Notes: generated by a model not told the origin, from the sequence alone. A stretch of 64,000 nt of DNA from Gammaproteobacteria bacterium (GCA_041396125.1 JAWKZG010000014.1:116229-180228); one strand, 5' to 3'. Counted from the stretch's first letter, positions 14,236-63,430 are shown. Program-made: numbers and translations.

Positions 14236-14318
14236 TCATCTGTTATTGAGTACAGCCCGTTTAACGGGCTGTGCCAATAGTCTAAACGGTCGGCAATGCT
14301 GCACTTTAATTGTTTGTC

Positions 14319-14399
14319 ATTCCCGCGCAGGCGGGAATCCAGTGGCACTACACTCTTCACCATCATCTAAACTGTCGTCATTCCCGTGCAGGCAAGAGT
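14319..14399. repeat. Two dRS3-like inverted-repeat units (ATTCCCGCGCAGGCGGGAAT; second copy degenerate) separated by ~40 bp (NIME-like)
   Basis: Perfect ATTCCC-N8-GGGAAT palindrome at 14319-14338, related copy 14380-14399; related copies at ~26106, ~26600 and ~26824. Confidence 0.7.
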
Positions 14400-14537
14400 C
14401 CCGAGCGAAACGCTGGGATTACGCTTCGCTTCATCACCAGCCTACTTCATCCCGGTCTACGCGGGCTTTTTTAAGGTGTACATCGTAAAATGACGCTTAC
14501 TAAACTGGAAATGAATGAAAGGTTAAAACGGCTAATC

Positions 14538-19499: not shown

Positions 19500-19808
19500 T
19501 TATAACCTGACTAGTTTGACTAGCAGCTTCCCAAACAATCAGAATATTGGTATATCAAGCAGTTACGATGGCGCAATTTGAGTCATCTTGAAAGTGCTGC
19601 TGATGTAACTCACAGGTATCATCGTTTCCCGAGTTTTCTGTAAATCCGATATCTGGGAAGAAGGATTTTGCAATAGAGAAGCCTTTGCCGCTTGGAACGA
19701 ATGGCTTCAGGCTGGTTAGTTTCATGATGGTTTACTTTTTTTTGCTGACATCTGATTTTAATGTAATCGTCCTGATACGAATCCGTTAACGATACCTGAT
19801 CGAGTGAT
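19500..19808 (-). pseudogene. Highly degraded integron-integrase (intI) 5' remnant
   Basis: Minus-strand translation TNKSPKSLDQV... parallels MNKLPILLDQV... of the intI at 58091; nucleotide similarity to 57990-58091 continues; start codon mutated (ACG). Confidence 0.4.
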
Positions 19809-19839
19809 TTGGGTGACTTATTCGTCCGGAAAATTTTAG

Positions 19840-19960
19840 GTACGTATAAAATTTATGTGAATTTTATCTTTCTGAATTTTATTGCTTTTATTGCTTTTAT
19901 TGCTGGGTGTTGACATTAGAAATTATGGGGGTCTATTTTGGCGTCTGTCTAAATTTAGTT
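19840..19960 (+). promoter_or_regulatory. attI-like region A with Pc-like promoter (TTGACA 19910-19915, TATTTT 19934-19939) ending at G|TT crossover (19958)
   Basis: ~80% identical to 58093-58217 next to intI; identity ends exactly after GTT as expected for attI x attC junction; contains 3x tandem TTATTGCT. Confidence 0.6.
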
Positions 19961-20042
19961 CGTCGCCATCAGAGAAAATCAGTAAGGTGACAAATTTAGG
20001 GTTTTCATCTCATACGCATGGGACCATAGCCGCGACTGGGTA

Positions 20043-21122
20043 TTGGCTCTTGCAGAGCGGCTTCGCAATGATGGAATCGACATTGTGCTCGATCAATGGG
20101 AAACGGTTCCCGGCGATATGCTGCCCAAGTTCATGGAATCCGCAGTTCGTGAAAGCGACTACGTGCTTGTTGTCTGCACTCCTTCGTATAAGAAGAAATC
20201 GGATGATCGAACAGGTGGAGTCGGCTACGAAGGGGACATCATGACCGCAGAGGTCTTCGCTCTCGAAAAGCGAGCGAAGTTTATCCCACTCCTCCGCGAA
20301 GGTGACTGGCGAGCGGCGTCACCGAGTTGGCTGCTGGGAGCCTATTATCTCGACCTGCGAGGGGAGCAATACTCAAGTGACACTTATGGCGAATTGCTTG
20401 ACCTTTTGCTGGGGCGTCGCAAGAAGGCGCCTGACCTGGGGACGTCTCGACCATCCTGGGCTGAGCTAAGTCCGATTGAAATCGTGCAAATTCCCCTCTC
20501 TAGCGAACTCCCTCAATTCTCCAAGGACGGATGGCTTACGCTTATAGCTCACGCATTGGCTAAGACGTTTAGTGACCAGCCAACCACGCGATTCGTCGGA
20601 CTGCTATCGCAACGGATCGTCGAACGAGATGGCAACGAGTTCACGGTGGTATCTATGACTGCACCGTTTTCCAGATTCCTGAAAAGCTATAAACTCTCAA
20701 TCTCGTCGCTGATGGAGGCTTCGCTAAGGCGGGACAGACCGGCAATGGAGGAACAGAAGGCAGACCTTGCTGATACGCTTTCGAAGTGGCGATACCGAGT
20801 AGAAGTGGGATGCGGCGAATCCTGGACGGCAAATCAGTTTGTTGTGGATGCTGAAACGAAGCTCATCGAAGTCACACCTGCCACTCTGGATACAAAGCAA
20901 AAGAAATTTTGGCGACCAAAGTCGACCAGCGAAGTTCTTGCTTTGATTGCGCATCTGAGTAATCCAATTGTTCAAATGAACATTGATGGTCTGTTAGAAG
21001 ATCCGAGGTTGACTGATTTGGTGAAAGACCTTTTAGATCATAAATACGTCAATATGGATCGCCTCCATGTGGCTTTGTCAAATCCTGAACAGTGGGAGTA
21101 CTCTGGTGATGAGGACGTTTAG
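20043..21122 (+). CDS. TIR domain protein with ~230-aa uncharacterised C-terminal domain (cassette A1)
   Basis: In-frame FRVFISYAWDHSRDWVLALAERLRNDGIDIVLDQWE...DYVLVVCTPSY fits TIR alphaA-betaB pattern; TIR homology extends upstream to ~19995 without canonical start (TAA at 19983; listed start is TTG). Confidence 0.65.
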   Translation: MALAERLRNDGIDIVLDQWETVPGDMLPKFMESAVRESDYVLVVCTPSYKKKSDDRTGGVGYEGDIMTAEVFALEKRAKFIPLLREGDWRAASPSWLLGAYYLDLRGEQYSSDTYGELLDLLLGRRKKAPDLGTSRPSWAELSPIEIVQIPLSSELPQFSKDGWLTLIAHALAKTFSDQPTTRFVGLLSQRIVERDGNEFTVVSMTAPFSRFLKSYKLSISSLMEASLRRDRPAMEEQKADLADTLSKWRYRVEVGCGESWTANQFVVDAETKLIEVTPATLDTKQKKFWRPKSTSEVLALIAHLSNPIVQMNIDGLLEDPRLTDLVKDLLDHKYVNMDRLHVALSNPEQWEYSGDEDV

Positions 21123-21132
21123 AGAAATGAGT

Positions 21133-21216
21133 GACGAACAAAGCCGTGCACCGGAGCACCCATTCACGCGGTTCATGAATTCAAACTCTTCCGTTCGTGC
21201 CCGGTGACGGCAGACG
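21133..21216 (+). other. attC A1 (inverse core GACGAAC ... GTTAGGC)
   Basis: GACGAAC complements cassette start TTCGTC; R' GTTAGGC consensus; 84 bp. Confidence 0.55.
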
Positions 21217-21266
21217 TTAGGCTTGCGTCGAGAAAATCAATCAAACTTCAATAAAGGAAAAGAATT

Positions 21267-21476
21267 ATGGCAACAACCATGTTTTTTGAAGAGCTCGTTA
21301 AGTGCCAGGGCGGAAAAGAAGAAATGGATATAGAATTCGGTCGATCCTCATTTTACGAAGAGGATAGTATATATCTGAAGGTGGATGGAAAGTCCATAGT
21401 AATGGACCGAGCGACCGCCAAGAAATTTGTAGAGGCCGCCTCTGGAGTTGGTCACTATTTTGGTTTTATTGACTAG
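21267..21476 (+). CDS. Hypothetical 69-aa protein (cassette A2, gene 1)
   Basis: ORF with RBS aaaggaaaag upstream; no recognisable domain. Confidence 0.4.
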   Translation: MATTMFFEELVKCQGGKEEMDIEFGRSSFYEEDSIYLKVDGKSIVMDRATAKKFVEAASGVGHYFGFID

Positions 21477-21491
21477 ATACTGGGATTATAA

Positions 21492-21755
21492 ATGCCAAAT
21501 ATTGATTTCAAAGATGTTGAAGCAATAGATCCGTCCACAATGGCGGTGTCATTTCCCGCTACCGTAGATGGAGTGCAAATTCGATGTGTCATTTCCACAG
21601 AAGCTTTACAAGATCACTTTAATGCTATGATTGATGATCAATTGGATGTGTTTAAATCAAACAGATATAGTATTGAATGTAAGGCCAGAGAAGTAATTGA
21701 GAGCGGTCGCTATGAAGCAGGCGGCAGCATTTTGATTCGTTCATCTGATTTTTAG
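21492..21755 (+). CDS. DUF1488 family protein (cassette A2, gene 2)
   Basis: 87 aa; VSFPATVDGVQIRCVISTEAL pattern resembles DUF1488. Confidence 0.55.
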   Translation: MPNIDFKDVEAIDPSTMAVSFPATVDGVQIRCVISTEALQDHFNAMIDDQLDVFKSNRYSIECKAREVIESGRYEAGGSILIRSSDF

Positions 21756-21757
21756 GC

Positions 21758-21866
21758 CTAACAAATTGCTGCACGCGGACACATACTGCTACGCTCGTTT
21801 TTGTGTGTCGCTGCGCTCCATTTTACACAAAAACGTTCTCCGCAGTATGTGCCGGTGAGCAAGGCG
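21758..21866 (+). other. attC A2 (GCCTAAC ... GTTATGT), long imperfect palindrome
   Basis: Inverse core complements cassette start TTAGGC; stems ACACATACTGC/GCAGTATGTG and CGTTTTTGTGT/ACACAAAAACG. Confidence 0.5.
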
Positions 21867-21890
21867 TTATGTGCCAGTCGCGAGAATTCG

Positions 21891-22193
21891 ATGCACCTAG
21901 TACCTCAATGGGATGAAATCAGGTTGATCGGCCAGTCCCGAATTGTCGGGTTGACTATGTTAGTGCCGTTCATTGGGTACCTACTACTTTTCAATGAATC
22001 CATCTGGGAATACTTCCGACTATCAACCGACCTCGTTGGTATAAAGCAGATCGAACCTGAATCAACCATTCTACGATTGCACTTTTTGTACTATGGCCTA
22101 ACGTTGGTAGGCTTAGCATCACTCCTTTACCAAGCAGTCTGCCCTCATGAGATCAAGGAGCATGGAAACGGAGTATGCCTATGTGAGTGGTGA
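21891..22193 (+). CDS. Hypothetical membrane protein (cassette A3), overlaps next ORF
   Basis: Predicted TM helices (IVGLTMLVPFIGYLLLF, LYYGLTLVGLASLLY). Confidence 0.35.
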   Translation: MHLVPQWDEIRLIGQSRIVGLTMLVPFIGYLLLFNESIWEYFRLSTDLVGIKQIEPESTILRLHFLYYGLTLVGLASLLYQAVCPHEIKEHGNGVCLCEW

Positions 22194-22551
22194 GTCAACT
22201 CTGATGACTCACGCTCGCTTTGCGAGTCTGGTAAATCCCTACGAAGAAAAACTTACGGAGGAGCCAGAGAAGTACTCGGAGTTAGAAGCCTACGTAAGTA
22301 GCTACAAAAAAGCGTCCAATCCAACCATGGACGTCTATTCTTCGAAGGAAGAACTACGAAGCGAGACTGCGGAACTTGAGCGAACTGCGTTCATAAACAC
22401 GCTGAGCTTCAATTGGCGATATCTATGCTCCAAGCACTTTTACACCAGGTTGGCTGTTTCTGCCCTCTACTTTTCTGGGTTCAGCTTGGTGTTGTGGCCA
22501 TCAGCGGTAGTGTTCGTTCAAGTCACATCTGGAATTCTGAGAGGCACATAA
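22147..22551 (+). CDS. Hypothetical protein with C-terminal TM segment (cassette A3); may be frameshifted continuation of previous ORF
   Basis: 134 aa ORF, stop embedded in inverse core ACATAAC. Confidence 0.35.
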   Translation: MRSRSMETEYAYVSGESTLMTHARFASLVNPYEEKLTEEPEKYSELEAYVSSYKKASNPTMDVYSSKEELRSETAELERTAFINTLSFNWRYLCSKHFYTRLAVSALYFSGFSLVLWPSAVVFVQVTSGILRGT

Positions 22552-22638
22552 CATGAAGTTGAAGTCGGACGTAGCAACCTGTCATCAAAATTGCTGCGCA
22601 ATTTTGCCGCCAGAACGACTACGCCGTTTAACTTGGTG
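22546..22638 (+). other. attC A3 (ACATAAC ... GTTAGGC)
   Basis: Inverse core complements cassette start TTATGT; 93 bp. Confidence 0.55.
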
Positions 22639-22664
22639 TTAGGCTATCAAGTAGGCATACAGCA

Positions 22665-23465
22665 ATGTTTGATAAGGAGTGGATCGAGAAAGCACAGAAG
22701 GTCACGGACGCGGAGTCCTGGGCTCATGGTGCCATGCTTGAACTAGATACCTCCGGTGGCATTTACCTCAACACACTTCGTATGTGGTATGAAGAATTTC
22801 CTGGATCAAAAAAGCAGAAGAAACCCCTACGACAACGGATCGAAAACTTTGGTAATGAAGACCACCTTGGTGGAGTAAACGAATTATCGTGGTGGAAATT
22901 TCTACAGAAAGGTAATTTCGGTGCTGAGCCAGTACCCACTGCTAGCAGCGCACGCCCAGATTTCAAAGTTCAGACACCGACAGAATTCTTCGTTGAAGTT
23001 TCAACGTTAAATGTTTCTGCTAATGAAAAGCAACAGATGGAAAGTGAAGGGGCTATTTCACTCAACCACGCGGAAACCCTCCGTCGCTTGTTGCTTAAAT
23101 CCACAAATGATAAACACGAACAGATGTCCTTTGCGTGCAACCAACGGCGCCCATGCTGCTTAGTGCTATTTGACTATATGACATGGAGCGCATTTGGCAC
23201 TCAATTTTTCCGCTATTTGGCAAGTTATCTTTTTCGCGAGAATGGAGGCTTCACGCAGCTGCCTACTGAACTATCTGCCCTTATCTATGTTGAAAGAAAA
23301 GTAATAGACGGGCACATTGGGTTAAGTCGTGATCGGTCAGCGGTGTACTACAATCCTAATGCGAAATACCCGCTCGCACCAGGAACATTCACTGAATTGC
23401 GGCAGTACTGGTACCAAATGGTGGAAGTCGAACCTCAATGCAAAGATTACTGGGTATGGCTGTAA
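22665..23465 (+). CDS. Hypothetical 266-aa protein (cassette A4)
   Basis: Clean ORF; possible nuclease-like RPDFKV...FFVEVST segment, unverified. Confidence 0.5.
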   Translation: MFDKEWIEKAQKVTDAESWAHGAMLELDTSGGIYLNTLRMWYEEFPGSKKQKKPLRQRIENFGNEDHLGGVNELSWWKFLQKGNFGAEPVPTASSARPDFKVQTPTEFFVEVSTLNVSANEKQQMESEGAISLNHAETLRRLLLKSTNDKHEQMSFACNQRRPCCLVLFDYMTWSAFGTQFFRYLASYLFRENGGFTQLPTELSALIYVERKVIDGHIGLSRDRSAVYYNPNAKYPLAPGTFTELRQYWYQMVEVEPQCKDYWVWL

Positions 23466-23481
23466 TTGTGGCTACGAGTTG

Positions 23482-23556
23482 GCCTAACAATGCCATTAAC
23501 ACGGACCCCAAAAAGCTACGCTGCGCTCCGCTTTGTGGGACCGGTTATGGCTGGCG
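23482..23556 (+). other. attC A4 (GCCTAAC ... GTTAGGC)
   Basis: Perfectly complementary R''/R' pair, 75 bp. Confidence 0.6.
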
Positions 23557-23581
23557 TTAGGCGTCACTAAGCGCTTCGGCA

Positions 23582-24055
23582 ATGAAATCTGAGTCCTATC
23601 GCGTTCGAGTCCTTGGCAGCTCTGACATTCAAGCAATGCGGGAAATGCTTGTCGCATTTGGCGAGGCCTTCGAAGACAAGCCGACTTACACCCAGCATCA
23701 GCCAACGGACACCTACCTCAAGGAGCTGCTCTCAAGCTCGACTTTCATCGCTGTAGCAGCGCTTTCTGAAGCAAAGGTCATCGGTGGCCTTGCGGCATAT
23801 GCGCTTCCCAAATTTGAGCAGGCCCGCTCAGAGATCTACATCTACGATCTGGCTGTACTAGAAAGCCATCGCCGCCAAGGCATTGCGACGGCGATGATTC
23901 AAGAACTCAAGAAGCTGGCCAAATCCATAGGCGCCTACGTCATCTTCGTTCAGGCAGATCATGGCGACGATCCGGCAATCAATCTCTATACGAAGCTCGG
24001 AGTTCGAGAAGATGTCCTTCACTTCGACATACTTCCTGGCGATGGTGACGCCTGA
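23582..24055 (+). CDS. Aminoglycoside 3-N-acetyltransferase, AAC(3)-I-like GNAT (cassette A5)
   Basis: Strong similarity to AAC(3)-Ia along whole length: [81 protein letters not shown]. Confidence 0.8.
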
Positions 24056-24115
24056 CCCTTCCATTGAGAGGTCGTTTTCCGGCCTACGGCCTCCAAGCGC
24101 CTCTCATGTCAAACG
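24051..24115 (+). other. attC A5 (GCCTGAC ... GTTATAC)
   Basis: Inverse-core-like overlapping stop codon; hairpin TTGAGAGG/CCTCTCATG. Confidence 0.4.
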
Positions 24116-24124
24116 TTATACATA

Positions 24125-24820
24125 ATGGATCCAAAGAAGCTGTTTATTGATGAGAGGTTAAAAGCCAATTGCGCCTATTGTGGTGCAGTCATGAATTCTA
24201 GGGATCACACTCCTTCTAAAGTATTCCTTGATGAGCCGTACCCAGAAAATCTGCCTGTCGCAGAAGCCTGCGCAAAATGCAATGGTGGTTTTTCTGCTGA
24301 CGAAGAGTATCTATCTTGCCTGATTGAGTGCGTAGTTCACGGGACAGCCAAGCCTGATGAAAGATTCAGAGATAAAGTGGCAAGAACTCTTGAAGCCCGA
24401 CCAGCCATCGCTAAACGAATCGAGAGTGGAAAGCAGTTGGATATTAGCAATAATCCAATTTGGCAACCGGAGGGGCCTCGAGTCAAGAATATTGTCCTGA
24501 AGCTTGCTCGCGGATACGTATCCTATGAGCTAGGGCTTCAGCATGTAGAAGAGCCGGTAATTATTGATATTGTGCCAAGTCCATGCATGACCGAAGATGA
24601 ATTAGAAGCTTTTAACACACTTGAGGAGCATGCTGGATTCCTATATCCAGAAATTGGCAGCCGTGCTTTCGTTAATTTACTGTCAGGAAAAGCCACAGCA
24701 TACGGTGGGTGGTATGTCGTGCAAGAAGGAAGATATCGATATGCCCTCGGTCAGTCAGCGGGTGATTGGGTGAAATTGGTGTTAAGTGAATATCTCGCAT
24801 GTCGCGTGGTTTGGGAGTAA
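24125..24820 (+). CDS. HNH endonuclease-domain protein (cassette A6)
   Basis: CAYCG...DHTPSK...CAKCN zinc-finger/HNH-like arrangement; 231 aa. Confidence 0.55.
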   Translation: MDPKKLFIDERLKANCAYCGAVMNSRDHTPSKVFLDEPYPENLPVAEACAKCNGGFSADEEYLSCLIECVVHGTAKPDERFRDKVARTLEARPAIAKRIESGKQLDISNNPIWQPEGPRVKNIVLKLARGYVSYELGLQHVEEPVIIDIVPSPCMTEDELEAFNTLEEHAGFLYPEIGSRAFVNLLSGKATAYGGWYVVQEGRYRYALGQSAGDWVKLVLSEYLACRVVWE

Positions 24821-24824
24821 TTAT

Positions 24825-24875
24825 GTATAACAAGGTGCCCAAGTTGGACGGCTTTGCCGGCCCTTGGCTTGGTAG
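24825..24875 (+). other. attC A6 (GTATAAC ... GTTAGAG)
   Basis: Inverse core complements cassette start TTATAC; short palindrome. Confidence 0.4.
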
Positions 24876-24920
24876 TTAGAGGAGAGTTAATGAATTGCCG
24901 GACTTGGAAACTGGATCTCA

Positions 24921-25860
24921 ATGGCGAATAAACCAGAAACAGCTTCAATCATACCGATACCTTCCGTGAAGAGGCTACTCAATGGCCCGAAGCGACAACA
25001 CTTTCTACCGAAATTCTACCTCGAAGGCTTTGCCATAGAGGATGGAATGGTCGGTGTTTGATCGGGAGTTGAACGAGATAAGGGTACAGCGGCCCGTGAA
25101 CACCTGCGTCATCGGACATTTCTACACAATGGAGGACTCAGGAGGGGCAAGGTTTCGACCTTGAACAATTGCTTTCCGAATATGAAAATAAGGCCAGTCT
25201 TGTTATTAAGAAACTGCGCCGCGCAGGAAGATATCAATGTGGACGAGCGGGCGGATTTTGCCATATTTGTAGCTTTAGCTGCATGCCGTACTCCTGACGT
25301 TGTGGATTCTCTTAAACTTTCAACTCCAACTTCATCAAAGATATGGCAAACCATATGTTTGCAGACGTTGACGGGGTTAAGGCACGAATTCGCGGCAAAT
25401 CTGACGTGCAGTTAACGGAGGAGGAACTGAGGCGGACGCACGCGCGCTTGTGGACTATGCGCAGAGCGGACGATATGAGGTAATTACGAACTGATGCGCG
25501 GGCCATTTGCATGGCGATGAAAATGGCTATGAGCATCGCGCCAATTTTGCAGGGCGTGACTGGATGGTTCTTCATCGTGATACCGAAAAGAAGTCTTTTG
25601 TGACCACCGATGCACCTGTTCTCCTAACCACGTTGGCTCCACGCAAGAAGAGCATTTGGGGTATCGGGTTCGGCAACATTGATGCCCTGGTACTGTTTCC
25701 CATGACGGAATCCTGCGGTTTGTTAATGTGCGGCACTGAGGGAGCACTGAGCACCGGAAACGTACAGATGCGGATAAAATACGCCGCATCAATTTGGCCG
25801 TCGCTGACCATTGCCAACGGTTTGTCGTTGGCCGTGACGAAGCGTTGGTTTGCTCATTAG
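24921..25860 (+). pseudogene. DUF4238 family protein with multiple frameshifts (cassette A7)
   Basis: KRQHFLPKFYLEGF and GHFYT motifs of DUF4238 N-terminus split across frames; later ORF 25507-25860 is the C-terminal part. Confidence 0.55.
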
Positions 25861-25936
25861 CAAATCGCTTATGTTTGGCAAACAAGAAGTGGCAACCCAA
25901 AATGCAAAGTACATAGATGACCTGAAATGAGGAAAA

Positions 25937-26035
25937 CTCTAACATTTGTGTCAAGTCGACGGGAATTTCGCTGGCGCTTCATTCCTGCTGCTTACCCATA
26001 CCGTTTGTCGCTACGCGGCGCAACCGGTCGTTCGG
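25937..26035 (+). other. attC A7 (CTCTAAC ... GTTCGGC), boundaries tentative
   Basis: CTCTAAC complements cassette start TTAGAG; TGTCAAG/CTTGACA stems. Confidence 0.3.
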
Positions 26036-26099
26036 CCTTGACAGAACCTGCTCCATTATCAGCGCTTGTATCTACAAAGATCCTTTCAGGCGATAATTA

Positions 26100-26180
26100 T
26101 CGTCATTCCCGCGCAGGCGTAACCAGTTCGGATCATTATCAGGAACATCTGATAGGCAGATCCAGACCGAATAAAGTGCC
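26100..26180. repeat. dRS3-like half repeat plus ~40-bp direct repeat copy 1 (TATCAGGAACATCTGATAGGCAGATCCAGACCGA)
   Basis: Nearly identical 38-bp sequence recurs at 26852-26890; ATTCCCGCGCAGGCG at 26106. Confidence 0.6.
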
Positions 26181-57497: not shown

Positions 57498-58091
57498 TCA
57501 GGTCGATACCGGCGTAGCTGGTATTAAGTGTTTGGCCTTAATTAGTTGGTCTTTTAAGGGTAGTAACAGATTTTCCGGAAGCATAGTCACCCGGTCCTTA
57601 TTACCTTTGCCTTCGCGAACGATGATTTCGCGCCGCTCAAATTCAATATCTTTGACGCGTAACCGCAAGCTTTCCAGCAAACGCATGCCTGTGCCATAAA
57701 GCAAACTTGCCACCAGCCACATGGTACCGTTCAATTCCGCTAGCAATGCCGACACTTCGCGTGGTGTCAACACCACCGGCAATCGTTTGGCTGCTTTGGC
57801 TTCCACCATTTCTTTCAACCACGGCAAATCGATATTGAGCACTTCTTTATAGAGAAAAAGTAAAGCCGATTTAGCTTGATTTTGGGTCGAGGCCGAAACC
57901 TTGCGTTCAACTGCCAGATACGTCAAAAAGGCTTCCACTTCTTTGACACCCATATCTTTGGGATGGCGCTATTGGTGGTACAAGATGAAACGCTTTGCCC
58001 AGTCGGCGTACGCGTCTTCGGTCCGAATGGAATAATGTTTGACACGTATCCGGTGACGAACCTGGTCAAGTAGTATTGGCAGTTTATTCAT
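57498..58091 (-). pseudogene. intI: Integron integrase intI: in-frame TAG (57969-57971) and loss of C-terminal half
   Basis: [84 protein letters not shown]... is the IntI N-terminal fold; only ~190 of ~320 aa present; catalytic RHRY C-terminal region absent. Confidence 0.75.
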
Positions 58092-58092
58092 C

Positions 58093-58217
58093 CGCAAAGT
58101 TTTAGGTTCGTATAATATTAATGTAAAGTTTATCTTTATGAATTTAATGGTTTTTATTTTTTGACGTTGACATTATAAAGTATGGCGGTTTATTTTTGCG
58201 TCTGTCTAAATTTAGTT
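58093..58217 (+). promoter_or_regulatory. attI-like region B with Pc-like promoter (TTGACA 58167-58172, TTATTT ~58189-58194); crossover G at 58215
   Basis: Divergent from intI start; ends GTT|AGCC; ~80% identical to 19840-19960. Confidence 0.6.
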
Positions 58218-58416: not shown

Positions 58417-58471
58417 GTCTAACAAGGCATTCAAGCGGAGCGTCTTTACAAGCCGCTCGCTTAGTTTATCG
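58417..58471 (+). other. attC B1 (GTCTAAC ... GTTAGGT), 55 bp
   Basis: Inverse core one mismatch from complement of cassette start TTAGCC; hairpin AAGCGGAGCG/CGCTCGCTT. Confidence 0.4.
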
Positions 58472-58488
58472 TTAGGTGATCAGCCGGG

Positions 58489-58863: not shown

Positions 58864-58930
58864 ATCTAACAAAAGCATCAACAGGGATGTCTGCTTCGCA
58901 GCCACCCGTTATGAAAATCGTTAGACCGAT
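58864..58930 (+). other. attC B2 (ATCTAAC ... GTTAGAC)
   Basis: Inverse core/R' pair flanking short palindrome. Confidence 0.45.
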
Positions 58931-60014: not shown

Positions 60015-60065
<51 letters not shown>

Positions 60066-61925
60066 AGCGTGTGTGCCGGGCATGGCACGAAACGAGTCGG
60101 GTGAGAGTCCCGATACCAGGTATTCGCAGAGCCGAAGGTTAGGAGAAGGGCAAGGGCGTCATCGTGAGGTGGGGTCTGTAGGAAGCCCAATCCAAAGCGG
60201 CGGGGCGACGAACAGGAACTGGATACGAGGTGTGACACCGACGGGGCCAGTGGGCACGTGACCATCAAGCCCTCCATCTGCACGGGTCGGTGTTTTATAA
60301 ATCCAGCGTCTACGTCGCGAACGTTTCGTGTCTTACCCCGGGAGGTCTGTCAATTGTTCACGGATCGAACTGAAACGGGAGTAATCGCGTTTGATCGGTT
60401 GGCAGAAGTCAGCAGCGGGCATAGTAGGCGAGATCTCACCGCCGAAGGCCCAAACCTTTGTGGAAGTGACCGCCGGTGAAGAACCCATCGAACGCCTCAG
60501 CCCCGCAGCTTGCGCTGCCTCTGGTGATGCCGGAGGAGGAACGATGTGTTGAGGATCCGGACGACTCACCTTCCAAGACGAGCGCTTCATCGCTCATGGC
60601 GCAGGTATTGGAGCGGGAGAATCTGCTACGTGCGCTCAGACAAGTCCAACGTAATCGAGGTGCGCCAGGCATCGACGGCATGTGTGTCGAACAACTGTCT
60701 GGCTATCTCACCCTCCATTGGCCGCGCATCCGGACTGAACTGGCCGAAGGGCGCTATCGCCCCAAGCCGGTTAAGCGGGTCCTGATTCCGAAGCCTGACG
60801 GACGGCAACGCAAACTGGGTATTCCCACGGTCCTCGACCGTTTTATCCAGCAGGCGATTGCGCAAGTCGTGCAACGGCACTGGGAGCCGCACTTTCATGA
60901 CAACAGTTATGGATTTCGTCCCGGGCGCAACGCCCATCAAGCGATCAGGCACGCGCAGAGCGCGATCCGAGGCGGCAAGCGCTGGGTCGTTGACCTGGAT
61001 CTGGATGCCTTCTTTGATCGGGTCAACCACAGCCGCCTGATTCGGCGGTTGTACCGTCACCTGTCTGAACGTGGCCTGCTGCAACTGATCACTCGCTACC
61101 TGAAGGCGGGGGTCATGACAGAAGGCCAACGACAGGCGAGCGCCGAAGGGGTGCCGCAAGGCGGCCCCTTATCGCCGGTGCTCTCCAACGTCGTGCTCGA
61201 TGAGCTGGATTGGGAGCTGCACCGTCGAGGCCACACCTTTGCCCGTTATGCGGACGACTGCCAGGTATACGTCAGCAGTCAGCGAGCAGGCGAGCGGGTG
61301 ATGGCTCGTCTACAGCGCTATATCGAGCGGACCCTTCGACTCAAGGTCAACGCCGGGAAAAGTGCCGTGGACAAACCCTGGAAGCGTAGCTTCCTGGGCT
61401 TCACCTTCAGCCGCCGGGGTGCCCGGGTGAAAGTGGCCGAGAAGGCCATCGACCGCCTGCAAGCCAACATCCGGCAGCTGAGCCGTCGCACGAGAGGCTA
61501 CAGTTTGCGTCAGATCATCGCTGAGCTGAAGAAAACCCTGCTTGGATGGAAAGCGTACTTCGACTTGAGCGAGGTACTGAGTCCGCTGCGGGATCTGGAC
61601 AAGTGGCTGCGACGTCGATTGCGGTGTTATCAGTGGAAGCAATGGGGCCGCTCGGGGTATCGCCGTCTGCGCAAGCTTGGCGTTCCCCGGGTACTGGCCT
61701 GGAATACGGCCAAATCGGCGCATGGGCCTTGGCGTATCAGTCACAGCCCTGCACTGTACCAGGCGATGCCGAAGCGTTACTTTAGGGACTTGGGGCTGCC
61801 GGAACTGGCAGCACGATGAACCTCACAAAGGAACCGCCGTGGTACGTGATCCGTATGCCCGGTGGTGTGGGAGGAGAGGGGCTGCGAGGCCTCTCCCTAT
61901 CCCGATTATACGTAAGTAATGATCG
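60066..61925 (+). mobile_element. Group II intron (bacterial class C-like, attC-associated); boundaries approximate
   Basis: 5' GTGTGCC... (GUGYG) right after a stem-loop; RT/maturase ORF in domain IV; GC-rich D5-like hairpin GGGAGGAGAGGGGC...GCCTCTCCCTATCCC and short D6-like hairpin near 61870-61920. Confidence 0.55.
60476..61819 (+). CDS. Group II intron reverse transcriptase/maturase (no endonuclease domain)
   Basis: RT blocks 0-7 (PKPDGRQRKLGIPTVLDRFIQQA, YADDCQVYV) and maturase X domain; 447 aa. Confidence 0.9.
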   Translation: MKNPSNASAPQLALPLVMPEEERCVEDPDDSPSKTSASSLMAQVLERENLLRALRQVQRNRGAPGIDGMCVEQLSGYLTLHWPRIRTELAEGRYRPKPVKRVLIPKPDGRQRKLGIPTVLDRFIQQAIAQVVQRHWEPHFHDNSYGFRPGRNAHQAIRHAQSAIRGGKRWVVDLDLDAFFDRVNHSRLIRRLYRHLSERGLLQLITRYLKAGVMTEGQRQASAEGVPQGGPLSPVLSNVVLDELDWELHRRGHTFARYADDCQVYVSSQRAGERVMARLQRYIERTLRLKVNAGKSAVDKPWKRSFLGFTFSRRGARVKVAEKAIDRLQANIRQLSRRTRGYSLRQIIAELKKTLLGWKAYFDLSEVLSPLRDLDKWLRRRLRCYQWKQWGRSGYRRLRKLGVPRVLAWNTAKSAHGPWRISHSPALYQAMPKRYFRDLGLPELAAR

Positions 61926-63147: not shown

Positions 63148-63242
63148 ACCTAACATCAGGTTGAGGCGGACTTTTTACAAACTGGCCCAACTTGAGTTCT
63201 GCCAGAACAGGCCAATTTGTAAAAAGCCTCTTAACCTGGGCG
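63148..63242 (+). other. attC B5 (ACCTAAC ... GTTATGT), 95 bp
   Basis: Long stems GGACTTTTTACAAACTGGCC/GGCCAATTTGTAAAAAGCC; R' GTTATGT identical to attC A2. Confidence 0.6.
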
Positions 63243-63430
63243 TTATGTGATTGTTTTATGAAATAATATCAAGAAAATGTGTACTAAAGTACCTGTGAGT
63301 GAGTTAGTCCAGCTTCCGATTACCTGGGTTAGAGGTGATGACGAATGACTTAAGACGGTGTTTAAGTCGTTAAAGTCAGGAAACTGTATCAAGCAACCCA
63401 TTAGACTACTAAATTGTGGCTGTGGAAAAA

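Follow-up and report, generated by a model that had tools for sequence, protein, structure and literature searches.

The AAC(3)-I profile of aminoglycoside resistance comprises gentamicin, sisomicin and fortimicin. Clusters of attC sites that lack an integrase are called CALINs in the usage of IntegronFinder, and chromosomal integrons with an inactivated intI gene have been described for Xanthomonas. Homology between attC sites has assigned source taxa to 27% of resistance cassettes, the taxa being Xanthomonadales, Spirochaetes and Vibrionales, with aacC5 and aacC6 both traced to Xanthomonadales; the main text of that study mentions neither aacA4 nor Burkholderiales (Ghaly et al, 2021; PMC8352920). 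A search of the literature returned no paper tying Rhizobacter-type arrays to resistance cassettes, nor did a full-text search bring up a primary study of meta-AAC enzymes and environmental aminoglycoside acetyltransferases.

Here we describe an aac(3)-I gene cassette within a stretch of 64,000 nucleotides from a Gammaproteobacteria bacterium (GCA_041396125.1, JAWKZG010000014.1:116229-180228), the whole of which is referred to below as the window. The cassette is very probably complete and horizontally acquired, the fifth in a chromosomal array without an integrase, and probably expressed at a low level; the activity of its product is predicted from homology.

Results

The cassette carries an intact AAC(3)-I gene

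The gene is an open reading frame on the forward strand (23582..24055; 157 codons plus stop) that encodes an AAC(3)-I family aminoglycoside 3-N-acetyltransferase of the GNAT fold. An in-frame TAG at 23558-23560 rules out a start codon upstream of 23582. The 157-aa product matched the NCBIfam equivalog model NF033083 (AAC_3_I) with 230.8 bits against a cutoff of 200 (E 6.2e-69), residues 8-150 aligning to positions 1-143 of the 145 in the model, and the second-best NCBIfam family reached 34 bits. Pfam recognized the GNAT domain (Acetyltransf_1, E 1e-17), and the solved AAC(3)-I structures 4yfj, 6bvc, 9mgs, 1bo4 and 5hmn were all matched at E 8e-59 to 8e-50, the lowest value being that of 4yfj. 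The alignment is free of gaps to AAC(3)-Ia and likewise to 4yfj and 6bvc, the acetyl-CoA motif RRQGIA occupies residues 97-102 (R97 to A102), and all 61 columns that are invariant in a family alignment of 21 sequences are kept by the window protein. The aac(3)-I gene is intact and, relative to the copy found in Rhizobacter, under purifying selection (dN/dS 0.18). From copies that are 99% identical the window gene differs by three to four nucleotides, all of them non-synonymous (S53P, H96Y, I116L, N134S) and all in family-variable columns; this count is too small to call selection.

A reading made from the DNA without database searches (hereafter the sequence-only reading) had described the product as a clearly diverged AAC(3)-I enzyme that matches AAC(3)-Ia motif for motif, and had proposed that identity below ~40% to AAC(3)-I enzymes would count against it. 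Family membership and divergence were both confirmed. In tblastn comparisons against annotated plasmids, the product was 66.9-67.1% identical to AAC(3)-Ib, 66.4% to AAC(3)-If, 63.2% to AAC(3)-Ic, 63.0% to AAC(3)-Ia (92/146, no gaps), 59.6% to AAC(3)-Ih and 55.6% to AAC(3)-Id, a range (55.6-67.1%) that lies well above the proposed line. The resemblance in motifs is also real, but four of the five strings that had been quoted are the AAC(3)-Ia versions, one or two residues off those of the window; HFDI is among the motif strings as they read in the window protein. The exact protein has already been deposited in NCBI under an AAC(3)-I family annotation.

By homology, the enzyme would transfer an acetyl group from acetyl-CoA to the 2-deoxystreptamine ring in aminoglycosides of the gentamicin type, at the 3-amino position. 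Alternatively, if resistance enzymes of this kind were recruited from a broad housekeeping family, the product could be a GNAT protein with a substrate other than an aminoglycoside and would confer no useful resistance. The family is large: among 8,000 candidates scored, at least 7,994 were homologues at E <= 1e-20, and at least 529 homologue loci lie in species-representative genomes. Of the best 80 among these loci (at least 529 in all), only ~4-9 stand in attC arrays, those of Piscinibacter defluvii, Rubrivivax sp. RP6-9 and a Rhodocyclales MAG among them; this count is a lower bound, as weak sites tend to escape the attC heuristic. The others among the best 80 appear to be plain chromosomal genes, mostly of Burkholderiales, and their carriers include Hydrogenophaga, Caldimonas, Variovorax, Luteimonas and cyanobacteria, among others. 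Since most genomic members of the family are thus not carried on cassettes, the native substrate could be something other than an aminoglycoside. However, the product exceeds the curated cutoff of NF033083, a model at equivalog level, it keeps long motifs of AAC(3)-Ia and AAC(3)-Ib, for which structures have been solved, and AAC(3)-Ia, -Ib, -Ic and -If (63-67%) are as close to it as its nearest non-cassette chromosomal homologues (at most 72% among the matches listed). We consider a non-aminoglycoside substrate unlikely, and retain the reading of the product as an aminoglycoside 3-N-acetyltransferase.

The cassette boundaries are reproduced among different neighbours

The cassette is 559 bp long (23557..24115, forward strand), its ends being given by the points at which homology to 21 other contigs breaks off. 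This homology runs from G|TTAGGC to ...CAAACG|TT, and six different contexts lie upstream of it and four downstream. A discrete cassette bounded by attC sites, as the sequence-only reading had it, is therefore what the comparison recovers, with the boundaries 23556|23557 and 24115|24116 reproduced in the 21 contigs, and the interval 23557-24115 that it had named coincides exactly with a single cassette as conventionally delimited. GTTAGGC occupies 23556-23562. Its G (23556) belongs to the preceding attC (23482-23562), and the G|TT crossover falls between this G and the T at 23557; at the other end, the interval closes with the G (24115) that opens the following GTTATAC. The cassette consists of one promoterless gene together with its own attC.

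When the flanks of 17 contigs were aligned, upstream similarity began at TTAGGCGTCACTAAGC, directly after a G, and four unrelated upstream sequences were distinguished, the window's own included. Downstream similarity ended at CATGTCAAACG; the next letters are TTATAC, TTAGGT or TTAGGC, beyond which the sequences are unrelated. A fifth upstream context, in contig L010, diverges within the leader at the end of an IS-type transposase gene and, because of that position, is not a junction at the crossover point. Two further contigs, which hold the Rhizobacter-like variant, added two upstream contexts and one downstream context. These added contexts were yielded by a degenerate junction pattern searched in JGI metagenome contigs, among which the exact 29-nt junction pattern was found in none.

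At least 18 contigs, from metagenomes or MAGs, encode a protein 97-99% identical to the product. Near-identical copies of the cassette share 99.1-99.4% DNA identity with the window, whereas the malate synthase G of the host has no relative above 82%, one 98% contig aside; this difference argues that the cassette is foreign to its host, which would have acquired it horizontally. Horizontal acquisition is further suggested by the attC, which alone among those of the window matches a model of Rhizobacter-type sites (see below). The near-identical copies occur in records named WANG18-1_SAMN0838..., whose sample names hint at a single wastewater-type data series, and in a MAG labelled HKST-UBA63. 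The copy in the latter lies on a 1.9-kb contig assigned to Candidatus Saccharibacteria, a label that is probably a binning artefact.

The attC belongs to a family found in Rhizobacter arrays

The attC of the aac(3)-I cassette, identified with a covariance model and by alignment, is 72 nt long (24050..24121, forward strand) and overlaps the TGA stop codon of the gene. Its arms are R'' GCCTGAC, L'' CATTGAGAGG, L' CCTCTCATG and R' GTTATAC. The covariance model was built from 22 attCs of Rhizobacter J219, with the attC of its aac(3) cassette left out. On this model the window attC scored 56 bits (E about 1e-13) and was the sole site in the window above 14 bits, the next best (21180-21222) reaching 13.2 bits (E 0.53). 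Among clinical attCs, that of aacA4 scored 71.3 bits, that of aadA1 43.6 bits, and that of aacC1 gave no match. The window attC is thus of the type used throughout the chromosomal array of Rhizobacter J219, GCCTAACCCTTCCATCGAGAGGAC...GCCTCTCATGTCAAACGTTAGGC, and arms of this family are common to arrays of Rhizobacter, Piscinibacter and Rubrivivax.

Within this family the window attC is a degraded member. Its bottom strand folds weakly (-11.4 kcal/mol, z -1.75), compared with -23.0 kcal/mol for Rhizobacter and -24.8 kcal/mol for aacA4. R'' reads GCCTGAC and not RYYYAAC, because the overlapping stop codon is TGA where the Rhizobacter copy has TAA, and the predicted extrahelical base is A and not G. 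The changes in R'' and in the extrahelical base are common to all of the 97-99% copies with an attC on the contig, and these copies lie in different contexts, which suggests that the degraded variant has probably recombined nonetheless; its degradation relative to the family makes its present mobility uncertain.

One attC of Rhizobacter J219 (L009 1708-1779) is identical at 71 of 72 positions to the attC of the clinical aac(6')-Ib/aacA4 cassette in pIGT15 (L018 2409-2480). Two genes of the Rhizobacter array were considered as AAC(6') enzymes and rejected: the 208-aa protein encoded upstream of this aacA4-like attC, which is unrelated, and an acetyltransferase encoded at L009 2474-2920.

Comparison with aacC1 and other clinical AAC(3)-I cassettes

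The sequence-only reading had also proposed an environmental progenitor or reservoir of a gentamicin-resistance cassette. An ancestor of a clinical AAC(3)-I cassette, be it aacC1 (AAC(3)-Ia) or another, would be expected to belong to the same enzyme family, to be borne on a cassette and to reside on an environmental chromosome, as is the case here. However, the window gene is 63% identical to aac(3)-Ia in protein and ~67% in DNA, its product is no more than 67% identical to any named allele found, and ancestry of aacC1 would imply near-identity (~98% or more) of both ORF and attC. The 109-nt attC of aacC1 is in fact unrelated to that of the window, being without a match to the model on which the latter scores 56 bits. 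Megablast of the cassette gave no match in 72,556 plasmids and none in 5,426 E. coli genomes, and an attI1 site is present in none of the upstream contexts seen. The 5' junction, GTTAGGC, had been likened to that of aacC1 cassettes, but the aacC1 junction in pIGT15 is GTTAGGT, and since the GTTRRRY core is generic to all cassettes it provides no specific link. Judged on these comparisons, descent of the known alleles from the window cassette appears effectively refuted, and we give it almost no credence. The term reservoir holds in a generic sense only, as it would for thousands of environmental homologues.

The array follows a decayed integron platform

The setting is chromosomal and environmental, in agreement with the sequence-only reading: the DNA comes from a MAG contig, and the flanking genes include those for ABC transporters, fatty-acid oxidation and malate synthase G as well as xsc. 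The array that holds the cassette (array A) is contained in a low-GC block at ~14.3-26.1 kb, with GC of 0.43-0.53 compared with 0.55-0.62 outside. A hairpin repeat, GTCATTCCCGCGCAGGCGGGAATCC, is found at both edges of this block (14316-14340, 14377-14401 and 26102-26126), and its copies may be REP-like elements or island boundaries.

Array A starts at 19959, directly after the remnant of an integron platform (platform A; 19745..19958, forward strand) that was delimited by alignment with a second platform in the window (platform B, 58030-58217). The remnant comprises an intI relic, a Pc-like promoter and attI. The relic is degenerate, amounting to ~60 nt of the 5' end of intI with ATG changed to ACG, and homology between the two platforms stops exactly at attI, ...TCTAAATTTAG|TT (19958|19959). 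The Pc-like promoter (TTGACA-N18-TATTTT; 19910..19939, forward strand) scored 10/12 in a promoter scan and is conserved in platform B; because promoter-like sites were not above chance as judged from shuffled sequence, its function as Pc is suggested by position and conservation only. An attI and a putative Pc thus stand at the head of array A, and what adjoins it of intI is the ~60-nt relic.

Platform B (58030..58217, forward strand) fills the space between an intI pseudogene and the first cassette of array B and contains the equivalent Pc-like promoter and attI (...TCTAAATTTAG|TTAGCC), after which the attCs of array B follow at 58417-58477, 58864-58926 and 63148-63248. The pseudogene (57498..58091, reverse strand) is the sole intI in the window and lies about 33-34 kb from the cassettes of array A. 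It represents the N-terminal half only, has an in-frame TAG at codon 41, and matches positions 1-183 of the 315 in TIGR02249 with 240.6 bits, which is under the cutoff of 265 because of the truncation; Pfam matches were also obtained, and no integrase-like sequence was found beyond residue 197. The window holds two paralogous, decayed integron platforms, and the two Pc-attI segments (19745-19958 and 58030-58217) are 38 kb apart in the same orientation. A further candidate integrase, on the reverse strand at 14.5-15.5 kb, was rejected, as it proved to be a deaminase-like gene and an unrelated ORF.

Array B also contains a group II intron (60017-61910, forward strand, exact ends approximate; Rfam RF02001 120 bits, RF01998 46.6 bits), which is oriented as the cassettes are and carries an ORF for a reverse transcriptase/maturase (60476..61819). 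An attC-like left arm (GTCTAACAACAGCATGCAGCGG at 60017) directly precedes it, and the intron therefore appears to have entered array B where an attC has its 3' end.

The designation of the locus as an integron therefore needs to be qualified. The array does begin at a Pc-like promoter and an attI remnant, but its own integrase is gone and the only intI in the window is a truncated pseudogene. With six attCs, where at least two are needed, and no integron integrase nearby, array A falls under the definition of a CALIN.

The six attC-like sites of array A lie between 21133 and 24881, the sixth (24825-24881) being weak. They were obtained with strict criteria that gave 0-1 matches on 30 kb of ordinary chromosome as a control; an earlier permissive scan, whose matches were mostly false and in coding sequence, was replaced by these stricter scans with the control region. 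All cassettes are on the forward strand. The first (19959..21216; attC 21133-21222) encodes a TIR/SEFIR protein (ORF 20043..21122) that matches Pfam TIR_2 and SEFIR as well as the PADLOC anti-phage model bSEFIR (E 6.5e-50), and the promoter-proximal position of the array is thus held by a defence gene. The second (21217..21866) has an attC of 117 nt (21756-21872; -49.9 kcal/mol, RNA parameters), and the third (21867..22638) an ORF without a family (22147..22551) and an attC at 22546-22644. The fourth (22639..23556) encodes a protein of 266 aa, likewise without a family (22665..23465), and ends in a canonical attC, GCCTAAC...GTTAGGC (23482..23562), the bottom strand of which folds at -19.7 kcal/mol (DNA parameters; z -3.96) and the R' of which, GTTAGGC, is the 5' junction of the aac(3)-I cassette.

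Downstream of the aac(3)-I cassette, the sixth cassette (24116..24875; ORF 24125..24820, 231 aa, no family) has the weak attC mentioned above and also follows aac(3)-I in another contig, L001. The seventh cassette region (24876..26100, the right-hand limit of the array being approximate) contains a broken gene, as seen in alignment and translations against the L001 copy. Compared with that copy (L001 2368-3009), which is intact, window positions 24921-25560 contain at least eight single-base indels in 500 nt, whereas the 1.4 kb just upstream have none; these indels may reflect either real pseudogenization or a local assembly problem.

Expression and mobility of the cassette in its present host

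Transcription of aac(3)-I would come only from the Pc-like site ~3.6 kb upstream and would have to pass through four attCs, and the 25-nt leader of the gene has no Shine-Dalgarno motif. The distant promoter and the missing motif together suggest that the gene is probably stockpiled at low expression, and the cassette would move only with an integrase supplied in trans.

The same observations could be taken further, to a cassette stranded in its host: the gene would be intact but in effect silent and immobile, would give the host no phenotype and would be heading to decay. Such a state is suggested by the deletion of the array integrase and the truncation and nonsense codon of the other intI, by the fifth position of the cassette, which puts ~3.6 kb and four attC hairpins between it and the sole promoter-like site, by the leader without a Shine-Dalgarno motif, by the weakening of the attC at R'' and at the extrahelical base, and by the neighbouring cassette gene with its eight or more frameshifts. 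However, the ORF is without defect and keeps every invariant residue, the weakened attC variant occurs at ~99% identity in two downstream and three upstream contexts and has probably been recombined recently, and an integrase could exist elsewhere in the genome. We place the stranded state a little short of an even chance. It is compatible with a complete, horizontally acquired AAC(3)-I cassette as far as the identity of the protein is concerned, and differs from it on activity in the host.

Discussion

As a resistance gene, the aac(3)-I cassette of the window adds little, AAC(3)-I relatives being abundant in environmental bacteria and the exact protein being correctly named already. Its value, which is modest, is that of an example of cassette traffic, in which copies at ~99% identity are found among different neighbours, the attC is Rhizobacter-like and the host integron is without an integrase. 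The attC family has more potential than the gene itself, since it includes the attC of clinical aacA4 and so bears on the origin of clinical resistance cassettes; of the observations made here, only this link of the attC to aacA4 and to Rhizobacter-like arrays could reach further, as a possible lead to the source of aacA4-type cassettes. Along this line, the Rhizobacter-like integrons of Burkholderiales might be the source of cassettes with an aacA4-type attC, with the window cassette a sibling that moves between environmental arrays and is a candidate for capture. We put this forward tentatively and would sooner expect it to fail than to hold. On this reading, the cassette would already be moving between arrays in environmental, apparently wastewater-type metagenomes, and would be a realistic candidate for future capture by class 1 integrons.

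The array resembles CALINs and the chromosomal integrons of the Xanthomonas type in being a chromosomal array of attCs with signs of decay and no functional integrase nearby. Unlike CALINs, it has kept its Pc-attI end, and a second, paralogous platform in the same orientation is present in the window. Because the Pc-attI end survives, array A is better regarded as a truncated integron than as an orphan cluster.

The nearest named alleles are AAC(3)-Ib and AAC(3)-If, cassettes of clinical class 1 integrons (structure 4yfj), which have the NCBIfam family, size, GNAT motifs and carriage on a cassette in common with the window gene. One third of their residues differ from those of the window protein, and, in contrast to these alleles, the window cassette was not found on the plasmids or in the E. 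coli genomes searched, and its product has an activity predicted by homology only. With AAC(3)-Ia, encoded by aacC1 (for example in pIGT15, NZ_KP294351.1), the window protein has long blocks in common, including HRRQGIATA, and both cassettes are short, promoterless and without an obvious ribosome-binding site. Their attCs, however, are alike in the core sites only, and the 5' junction is GTTAGGT in aacC1 but GTTAGGC in the window. The converse is true of aacA4 (aac(6')-Ib), also of class 1 integrons, whose attC is of the same family as that of the window, CCTAACCCTTCCATCGAG...CCTCATGTCAAACGTTAGG, whereas the gene is unrelated, encoding an AAC(6') and not an AAC(3); the clinical attC is moreover intact and folds at -24.8 kcal/mol.

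The closest counterpart with respect to both gene and attC is the aac(3)-I cassette in the large chromosomal array of Rhizobacter sp. J219 (GCA_024700055.1, locus L009), which is 92.4% identical to that of the window in protein and 93.2% in DNA, has matching cassette boundaries and carries a homologous attC. The Rhizobacter attC is canonical (GCCTAAC, extrahelical G, -23 kcal/mol), whereas that of the window has GCCTGAC, an extrahelical A and a fold of -11.4 kcal/mol. The arrays also differ: in Rhizobacter the 20 kb read contain more than 20 repeats of the window-type attC, whereas the array of the window is heterogeneous and contains one attC of the Rhizobacter type, that of the aac(3)-I cassette.
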